A DNA stretch of 32,000 bases from Promethearchaeota archaeon (lineage in GTDB: Archaea; Asgardarchaeota; Hermodarchaeia; Hermodarchaeales; Hermodarchaeaceae). Made by a program: the position numbers and the translations under genes. The notes below the pieces were generated by a model. That model was not told where the DNA came from. It saw only the letters and a program-made list of their open reading frames with translations, and searched no databases. This document shows positions 30,912-32,000 of the stretch, piece by piece. The DNA lies in contig JBHLMI010000004.1 of assembly GCA_048938295.1 (NCBI GenBank), positions 60,001 through 92,000 of the forward strand, in the 5' to 3' direction. Within the stretch, counting starts at the first letter, position 1; every line of letters starts with the position of its first letter.

Positions 30912-30942
30912 AACCAGGTGAAGTCACATGCTTAACCTGGTT
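30912..30942 (+). promoter_or_regulatory. Hairpin covering the GDH RBS and start codon
   Basis: AACCAGGT-G-AAG / loop TCACATG / CTT-A-ACCTGGTT. The RBS AGGTGA (30916-30921) lies in the stem and the ATG (30928) in the loop. Confidence 0.35.
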
Positions 30943-32000
30943 GAATTAACACCAATTGAATTGGGCTTGCAGAAGTTAATGGTCGACTTCTTCGCTGATA
31001 AGCCCGAGTATACAGCCGGACTGGATCGATTTACATCCGCTCATTATGCCTTAATGACGGCATTATCTGAAAATTACAAGGTTCCCTTTGCGACAACATC
31101 AATGGTTTTCGAACAACTTGCCATGAAGATTCGTCGGGCTGAATATGTGAATGTTGAATGTCCTGATGAGTCATTAGGAAATGGTTGCCTAACCCGTCAA
31201 GAACTTCAAATTCTGGGTGCCATGTTTGATTATTTTGCTGAACAACCCTCACATGCTGAGGCCAGCCTTCTTACAAATCGTCGTGAAGTCTTCATAGATT
31301 ACTTCAAATGGATTCACGGTGGCAATATTGAAGAAATCTCGGTCTGCTGCGGCCAAGTGATTGATCGATTACAGAGCGCAGTTTCTGCCACAATTCAAAC
31401 CCTTGATTCAGTGACACCCACTCCTAATCCATATGAAGCGGCTCTTGAGCAACTGGATCTCGCTGCCGAAAAATTGGGTTTAGACCCAGCCACTCATGAG
31501 GTTTTGCGTCATCCACAGAGAATTCTCATCGTAAATATTCCAGTTCACATGGACGATGGAACAGTTCGTGTTTTCACTGGATATCGTTCCCAGTACAATG
31601 ATGCACTGGGACCTACGAAAGGGGGGATTCGATATCATCCTGATACAACACTCGATGAAGTGATTGCCTTATCGGCGTGGATGACCTTCAAAACTGCTGT
31701 CGTGGGCTTACCTCTGGGTGGCGGTAAAGGCGGGATACGGTGTAATCCCAAAGAAATGTCATTGGGCGAGCTTGAACGTTTAACCCGGGGATATACCAGA
31801 GAACTGGTTCGATTTATCGGCCCACAGACAGACGTCCCTGCCCCTGACGTGTATACGGATGCACAGATAATGACATGGATAATGGACGAATATGCTGAAT
31901 GCACAGGTCTTTATTGTCCGGGTGTGGTTACAGGAAAACCTGTGGGGATTGGTGGCTCGAAAGGTCGAGAGGAAGCAACCTCACTAGGATTAGTCTTCAC
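30928..32000 (+). CDS. gdhA: Glu/Leu/Phe/Val (glutamate) dehydrogenase with a 165-aa N-terminal extension; 3'-truncated by the window
   Basis: Hand translation is open from ATG 30928 to the window end. The GDH core starts at NPYE (about 31426) and contains GYRSQYNDALGPTKGGIRYHP, MTFKTA, LGGGKGG, DVPAPD and VTGKP..GGS.GR.EAT. Confidence 0.93.
   Translation, partial: MLNLVELTPIELGLQKLMVDFFADKPEYTAGLDRFTSAHYALMTALSENYKVPFATTSMVFEQLAMKIRRAEYVNVECPDESLGNGCLTRQELQILGAMFDYFAEQPSHAEASLLTNRREVFIDYFKWIHGGNIEEISVCCGQVIDRLQSAVSATIQTLDSVTPTPNPYEAALEQLDLAAEKLGLDPATHEVLRHPQRILIVNIPVHMDDGTVRVFTGYRSQYNDALGPTKGGIRYHPDTTLDEVIALSAWMTFKTAVVGLPLGGGKGGIRCNPKEMSLGELERLTRGYTRELVRFIGPQTDVPAPDVYTDAQIMTWIMDEYAECTGLYCPGVVTGKPVGIGGSKGREEATSLGLVF

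Follow-up and report, generated by a model that had tools for sequence, protein, structure and literature searches.

Why does a glutamate dehydrogenase (GDH) from an Asgard archaeon carry some 165 residues in front of its catalytic core? The question is raised by the right-hand end of a 32,000-nucleotide stretch of DNA from a Promethearchaeota archaeon of the Hermodarchaeaceae (GenBank assembly GCA_048938295.1, contig JBHLMI010000004.1, positions 60,001 to 92,000; here G000:C33:60001-92000), which we call the window and in which the gene for this extended GDH starts before running past the end. We use a combination of profile searches, comparison of loci and structure prediction to study what the extension is and how it relates to the genes and promoter elements around it. 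The short answer is that the extension is, by every sign in its sequence, a genuine and translated tandem repeat of no described family, that each repeat is predicted to be a helix-turn-helix (HTH)-like unit, and that it is nearly always inherited together with a degenerate KaiC-like protein and a protein with a ribbon-helix-helix (RHH)-like head. We tentatively favor a role as a docking adaptor between the enzyme and these two neighbors, a possibility with nearly as much for it as against it. Coordinates are collected in Table 1.

The part of the protein that follows the extension is readily recognized. Pfam places PF02812 (ELFV_dehydrog_N) at aa 196-323 (E 1.5e-57) and PF00208 (ELFV_dehydrog) at aa 342-573 (E 2.9e-81), and a phmmer search against the Protein Data Bank (PDB) aligns aa 166-573 with residues 3-411 of the 415-aa Thermotoga maritima GDH 2tmg (E 6e-143). 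All 51 solved GDHs listed in that search align only from query residue 163 or later, and 166 residues stand ahead of the NPYE with which the core begins. An earlier note on this DNA had said that 165 in-frame residues precede the core and that small hexameric GDHs have no such extension, and these alignments bear it out, to within one residue of the stated length. In the alignment to 2tmg the motifs K-G-G-I-R, G-G-G-K-G-G, G-F-G-N-V-G, G-A-N-G-P and N-A-G-G-V-T-V-S are intact. We take the catalytic lysine to be that of G-G-G-K-G-G, the contacts to the gamma-carboxylate to be made by the lysine of K-G-G-x-R and the serine of G-G-V-x-x-S, and the dinucleotide fold to be marked by G-x-G-x-x-G; with these roles, which come from established GDH structures, the core looks catalytically competent and glutamate-specific. 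The same genome encodes a second, canonical GDH of 420 aa on contig C5, 59% identical over the core, and by its sequence the extended protein is a paralogue of the small hexameric type, with both hexamer and activity predicted. Its score against NCBIfam GdhA_Arch is 557 bits, under the 750-bit equivalog cut-off, and we regard it as a diverged subfamily for which equal function with GdhA_Arch is not guaranteed.

Several features indicate that the extension is made as part of this enzyme. Relatives all start M-L-N-L-V-E-L, or with TTG or GTG at the same codon, and a GGTGA/GGAG-type motif stands at the same distance from the start in each of the 12 close loci and in the majority of the 64 distant ones. 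The ratio of nonsynonymous to synonymous substitution rates (dN/dS; Nei-Gojobori, eight informative pairs) is 0.05-0.24 for codons 2-165 and 0.04-0.09 for the core; as judged from these ratios the extension is under purifying selection, roughly two to three times weaker than that on the core. The fusion is found in 64 assemblies, and complete genes are in-frame open reading frames (ORFs) of 584-597 aa, with the single exception of L081, which has an in-frame stop. In addition, a 787-nt contig from a public sediment run, which may be the source sample itself, crosses the junction with zero differences. On this evidence the extension is genuine, coding and translated. We do not count as evidence of expression two short contigs from RNA libraries (about 93% identical, covering 31002-31142 and 31469-31728), which come from a relative and could reflect DNA carry-over.

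The extension consists of two repeats of about 80 residues, as the earlier note had proposed from short peptides whose coordinates (aa 7 at 30946, aa 88 at 31189) and 9/20 identity are correct. BLASTP gives no alignment between repeat 1 and repeat 2, and the homology between the halves is visible only by profile comparison. With hhalign, aa 1-82 against aa 83-165 gives a probability of 97% (E 1.6e-11, 73 columns) from 24 sequences and of 98.1% (E 7.4e-14, 76 columns) from 58 sequences, and the latter alignment pairs S58-A71 with S138-A151 exactly as had been suggested. From this score it follows that the two halves are homologous at the level of sequence profiles and that the tandem repeat is real, well beyond chance. 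In the 58-sequence alignment repeat 1 is the better conserved copy, with the motifs K-L-M-x-D-F-F, H-Y-A-L and S-E-N and most of the positions that are at least 90% identical, while in repeat 2 Trp128 is invariant and a G-G turn nearly so.

This domain matches no described family in any of the searches we made. Pfam finds no domain in aa 1-166 at E values up to 1, hence neither an ACT domain nor another described regulatory domain, and neither Pfam nor NCBIfam matches the extension of the window protein. Eighteen family members run against sequence families give scattered single-member, sub-threshold matches to unrelated families only, and a sequence-profile search of the PDB gives chance-level matches with nothing relevant among them; the earlier note's expectation that no characterized family would match thus stands for Pfam, NCBIfam and PDB sequences alike. 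A feature search of the extension in the Atlas is uninformative (score 0.76). Two adjacent ORFs without a Pfam family, P0003 and P0004 (L002:2-562 and L002:657-1271), lie upstream of the canonical GDH on contig C5; as candidate relatives of the extension they fail, with an hhalign probability below 1%. By eye, each of them seems to contain two internal helix repeats of the type L-[SP]-x-x-[DE]-L-x-L-L-R.

Structure prediction offers a coarser handle. The AlphaFold2 model of both repeats (25-sequence alignment; mean predicted local distance difference test, pLDDT, 83.6; predicted template-modeling score, pTM, 0.81) shows in each repeat a strand, three helices and a strand. Foldseek finds nothing significant for this model in the PDB or the AlphaFold database (AFDB), and in VIA-align its Z is at most 4.0, with weak matches mostly to winged-helix and HTH proteins, including ScpB with its tandem winged helices, ORC and a RepA cluster. 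Repeat 1 modeled alone (pLDDT 79.6) gives a more coherent picture: its top 50 VIA-align matches are nearly all HTH or winged-helix domains, with Z of 5-6.4 and rmsd of 1.7-3.0 over 50-60 residues, although Z values below 8 in VIA-align can reflect a common helical arrangement. Among them are the LuxR-type EsrB (Z 6.4), DesR (Z 6.2, rmsd 1.7 over 53 residues), an archaeal transcription factor (Z 6.1), the MCM winged helix (Z 5.9), many sigma region 4 domains, LexA, MecI/BlaI and Lrp/AsnC. A shape search of a single repeat in the Atlas returns clusters of HTH_17, Trans_reg_C, Penicillinase_R, Lrp/AsnC, GerE, Sigma70_r4 and LexA (TM 0.49-0.60), and the AFDB clusters yield the same kinds of family, not significantly. 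Foldseek again reports nothing significant for the single-repeat model in the PDB or AFDB (E above 0.1), and no sequence-profile match to any described HTH family appears in Pfam, NCBIfam or the PDB profile search. Because the matches agree with one another, with no single score decisive, the models lend some support to the view that each repeat is an HTH-like three-helix unit.

The surface of such a unit bears on what it could bind. Across 58 sequences the extension has an isoelectric point (pI) of 4.3-6.6 with a mean of 4.9, so a basic, DNA-contacting surface is not what these sequences predict; the net charge is -10 in this protein and between -5 and -18 in the nine members counted, and in the consensus the start of the third helix, which would be the recognition helix, is rich in Glu and Asp. 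An acidic domain with such a helix argues against DNA binding. Tandem winged helices that bind proteins are known, for example in ScpB and ORC.

How widely is the extended enzyme distributed? The domain occurs in 11 of the 19 genomes of its own class and, at E up to 0.01, in 13 of the 400 of its own phylum, two of the 13 being marginal. A pattern scan of species-representative genomes finds 64 loci: 54 are from Bathyarchaeia or Bathyarchaeota, nine are labeled Hermodarchaeota, Promethearchaeota or plain "archaeon" (a Hermod isolate), and the last (L080, DASPTR010000068.1) is a contig of 3.3 kb, assigned to 'Candidatus Acidoferrum sp.', on which the KaiC-like gene and the first part of the extended GDH are found; its acidobacterial binning is probably an error or contamination. 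A metagenome-assembled genome of the Jordarchaeaceae also has an extended GDH. The extension is therefore widespread in Bathyarchaeia and not unique to this organism. A phmmer search had returned only seven representatives because whole proteins had been clustered at 50% identity, and the impression of rarity that this gives is set aside by the genome scan and the core search, which reveal over 100 clusters. Of the core homologues, the best 120 almost all have a length of 584-631 aa. A maximum-likelihood tree groups the 58 extended cores in a single clade (100/99), to the exclusion of the canonical paralogues of the same genomes, and inside it the Hermodarchaeota sequences group together (100/98), with a small Bathyarchaeia/Jordarchaeaceae group as their sister. 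The tree is consistent with a single origin of the GDH fusion, as seen against a small outgroup of four canonical sequences. We found no published description of the extended GDH in the literature on Asgard archaea, Hermodarchaeota and Bathyarchaeota.

The genes around the extended GDH are almost constant. Divergent from it lies a KaiC-like protein, matched weakly by PF06745 (27.8 bits), from which the motifs expected of a KaiC/RecA-like ATPase, G-x-x-x-x-G-K-[ST] and h-h-h-h-D, are missing. In all 11 orthologues compared, the Walker A position reads E-[YIV]-E-[TS]-G-T-F (here E-Y-E-T-G-T-F), with no Lys/Thr, and the Walker B position reads [VIF]-[INF]-[NSH]-S-L (here V-I-N-S), with no Asp. 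This pseudo-ATPase is 60-65% identical across phyla. Downstream of the extended GDH follows a protein of about 643 aa (about 645 aa across loci) with no Pfam family, for which the Atlas gives a lead, and only a lead, to an RHH-like head, and whose C-terminal part has a sub-threshold match to MetOD1 (E 0.02). Every close locus whose flanks reach far enough carries the triad of KaiC-like protein, extended GDH and ~645-aa protein, as do nearly all of the 64 loci, in two phyla, and in nearly all of these the pseudo-ATPase is the divergent neighbor. Genomes of the class have these three genes jointly or lack them jointly, apart from two exceptions that contig ends explain. The earlier note had proposed to check whether the extension and the pseudo-ATPase occur together, and almost without exception they do; it had not mentioned the third constant member of the triad, nor the operator boxes that we describe now.

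Both promoters of the triad contain arrays of TG(T/A)ACA boxes. Pairs of TGWACA spaced by 3-5 nt occur at six places in the 2.5-Mb genome, and closely spaced pairs in which both boxes are TGTACA occur only at the divergent promoter and at the promoter of the 643-aa gene. Arrays with fixed spacing are conserved before GDH in 53 of 55 related loci and before the 643-aa gene in 52 of 54, again across two phyla. The loci that have no boxes are L073 and L082, the same two that have no KaiC-like and no 645-aa neighbor. The boxes probably serve the RHH-headed 643-aa protein as its operator, an assignment we treat as putative.

How might these parts work together? The fold here is predicted; that the domain docks, which partner it would bind and which way control would run are our suggestions. 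We propose, with a confidence that stops somewhat short of even, that the extension is a protein-docking or regulatory adaptor that ties GDH to the co-inherited KaiC-like and RHH-headed proteins, by docking rather than by DNA binding. An HTH-like domain that has lost its DNA-binding surface would have become fused to a dedicated GDH paralogue, and would dock this copy of the enzyme to the Walker-less KaiC-like protein, to the ~645-aa RHH-headed protein, or to both. The RHH-headed protein, as the probable binder, would occupy the TG(T/A)ACA boxes in both promoters, and through the docking link either the activity of GDH would be controlled or its metabolic state would be reported to the regulator; the second version would resemble the case of Bacillus subtilis, where GDH inhibits GltC. 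A fuller form of this proposal, which we consider rather unlikely as it stands, is that in Bathyarchaeia and some Asgard archaea the triad forms an undescribed sensing circuit embedded in the enzyme, in which the N-terminal domain would couple the catalytic or ligand state of the GDH hexamer to the RHH-headed regulator, the KaiC-like pseudo-ATPase or both, and would thereby set transcription from the TG(T/A)ACA operators of a glutamate-metabolism island. The earlier note had imagined an allosteric, redox or partner-binding module; its regulatory and partner-binding side gains from a domain that is translated, duplicated and without a family and that co-occurs with the pseudo-ATPase, and its redox side does not hold, as we discuss below.

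Four observations weigh against the docking proposal. First, no physical interaction is shown or predicted for the extension; a predicted complex of the N-terminal domain with the KaiC-like protein scores 0.05 where the mark is 0.32, a value that speaks neither for nor against binding. Second, L073 and L082 keep the extension next to Lrp/AsnC regulators, with neither the KaiC-like gene, the 645-aa gene nor the boxes, which means that the domain has some use independent of these partners; in the tree they are a derived pair nested in the triad-bearing clade, having lost all three. Third, a 170-aa stand-alone homologue (L019:1041-1553, 36% identity) occurs in a different context and ends in a stop with no GDH downstream. 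Fourth, none of the fold matches is strong (Z stays below 8 and the Foldseek E above 0.1), and the HTH-like label comes from their consistency, not from significance. As to the surroundings of the stand-alone homologue, the neighboring ORF has a terminase-like Walker A motif, and the context may be viral or mobile. A further candidate for a stand-alone form, the 165-aa P0028, was rejected: on its 943-bp Logan contig (L018) the N-terminal domain is joined to an inverted KaiC-like fragment, and the contig is probably chimeric.

Some of these same observations lend themselves to the alternative that survives best, namely that the extension is an autonomous allosteric or assembly module that has no need of its neighbors and either binds a small effector or helps GDH hexamers to pack into higher-order assemblies. 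The persistence of the extension in L073 and L082 fits this directly, the stand-alone homologue shows that the domain is an independent folding unit, and the invariant polar and aromatic residues E11, D20, Y40 and W128 could line a pocket. What makes us think it unlikely is that no ligand-binding family is matched in sequence or fold, and that near-perfect synteny over two phyla argues for a function tied to the neighbors.

It is easy to see how a tandem HTH-like domain beside palindromic boxes could be read differently again, as a trigger enzyme that binds the TG(T/A)ACA boxes and so lets GDH autoregulate its own promoter and that of the downstream gene, in the manner of PutA or BirA. As in those enzyme-repressor fusions, a small N-terminal fold of DNA-binding type sits on a metabolic enzyme with palindromic boxes in its own promoter, here about one and two helical turns apart; a single repeat resembles DNA-binding HTH and winged-helix domains, and the closely spaced all-TGTACA pairs are confined to this locus in the genome. 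Unlike PutA and BirA, the N-terminal domain is acidic throughout the family, with Glu and Asp where a recognition helix would begin, and a separate protein next door, the RHH-headed one, varies together with the boxes and is the better candidate for binding them. L073 and L082, moreover, retain the extension after the boxes have gone. We consider this explanation improbable, distinctly more so than an autonomous module.

A redox switch is more improbable by far. The four cysteines on which it would depend are present in this protein as the earlier note stated (Cys78, Cys87 and the vicinal Cys140/141, along with the TPTP linker), but these positions are Cys in only 7-9 of 58 sequences, with Ala, Pro, Ile and Leu common there, and P0025 and P0029 have no Cys in the domain at all. 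Since only a minority of members have cysteine at these four positions, a redox role common to the whole family is excluded as far as the alignment can tell, and the idea is effectively refuted at that level.

The weakest explanation, that the extension is an assembly artefact or lies upstream of a true start near NPYE, has practically no probability left: the only start-like codon there, an in-frame GTG at 31411, has no ribosome-binding site, and selection, the conserved start codon with its ribosome-binding site, the 64 independent assemblies and the contig across the junction, all given above, speak against both forms of it. The earlier note had named both as ways in which its claim could fail. 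NCBI calls for some orthologues do start near NPYE, at 426-429 aa. One of them, P0231 (429 aa), is the exact tail of P0234 (589 aa) on the same contig, from which we conclude that the short forms are choices of gene calling; in L021 (L021:4073-5842, minus strand) a 429-aa call lies inside a 589-aa ORF, and P0221 and P0223 (426-427 aa) likewise begin just ahead of NPYE. Some public gene calls thus trim the extension, and the domain is partly invisible in databases.

Table 1. Positions of the extended GDH gene, its parts and the neighboring elements (window numbering unless a contig or locus is named).
Feature	Position	Strand	Basis or remark
KaiC/RecA-fold pseudo-ATPase, 242 aa	30064..30792	-	weak Pfam PAXNEB/KaiC; divergent from extended GDH
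Four TG(T/A)ACA boxes, divergent promoter region	30852-57, 30862-67, 30871-76, 30892-97	.	sequence, conservation
TATA-like TTTGAATA	30882-89	.	between boxes; putative TATA element
Shine-Dalgarno-like AGGTGA	30916..30921	+	6 nt before ATG 30928
Extended GDH ORF	ATG 30928, past window end; full gene L001:1629-3407	+	592 codons (592 aa)
Repeat 1 (aa 1-82)	30928..31173	+	strand, three helices, strand; AlphaFold model
Repeat 2 (aa 83-165)	31174..31422	+	homologous to repeat 1, more diverged; hhalign
Val-Thr-Pro-Thr-Pro linker, extension to GDH core	31411..31425	+	sequence; conserved as V-T-P-x-P
Catalytic GDH core start (NPYEAA...)	31426..32000, then 706 bases beyond window to L001:3407	+	Pfam, PDB alignment
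Boxes before 643-aa gene	G000:C33:92756-92770 (756-770 bases past window end)		sequence, conservation

Some further features of these loci are worth recording. The extended GDH ends in a basic C-terminal tail of 19 aa (aa 574-592, L001:3351-3407) that reaches past the end of canonical GDHs; relatives have such a tail as well, with a poorly conserved sequence. Downstream of the 643-aa gene lie a 937-aa ADP-forming acyl-CoA synthetase-GNAT fusion of Pat-like architecture (L006:3351-6164) and then an inorganic pyrophosphatase (L006:6170-6730), both kept in L003 and not in the Bathyarchaeia loci. The triad of Bathyarchaeia has as its neighbors a gene with a Glu_synthase domain and a canonical GDH. 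L073 and L082 have each gained an ORF of about 105 aa, of no known family, directly upstream, together with the divergent Lrp/AsnC regulators, and in L073 a separate GNAT follows the extended GDH.

Placed among known systems, the extended GDH is partly familiar. Its core (aa 166-573) is alike from end to end to the small hexameric GDHs of Thermotoga maritima (2tmg/1b26), Thermococcus litoralis (1bvu) and Pyrococcus furiosus (1gtm) and to GdhA_Arch, from which it differs in 166 additional N-terminal and 19 additional C-terminal residues, in forming a clade of its own and in scoring below the equivalog cut-off. From large GDHs with N-terminal ACT-like domains it differs in having no Pfam domain in aa 1-166. 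One repeat is weakly similar in predicted topology and geometry to the three-helix HTH and winged-helix domains of LuxR/NarL, sigma-70 region 4, Lrp/AsnC, MecI/BlaI, MCM and ORC, whereas it has no sequence-profile match to them, its surface is acidic and its scores possibly reflect a common helical arrangement. A functional parallel is found in B. subtilis, where the GDHs RocG and GudB inhibit the regulator GltC, so that a catabolic GDH is coupled to a transcription regulator of glutamate metabolism (PMC6794564). The extended GDH, for its part, is inherited along with a putative regulator and with operator boxes. Unlike it, the B. subtilis enzyme has no fused extra domain and its regulator is of the LysR type; the archaeal coupling, which is our suggestion, would run through a KaiC-like pseudo-ATPase and an RHH-headed protein.

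GDH links carbon metabolism to nitrogen metabolism, and it has a central place in the peptide fermentation that has been proposed for Bathyarchaeia and Hermodarchaeota. A conserved accessory domain without a family, carried in at least 64 species-level genomes together with two dedicated regulator-like genes and a conserved operator layout, points to an unstudied control of glutamate catabolism in abundant sediment archaea.

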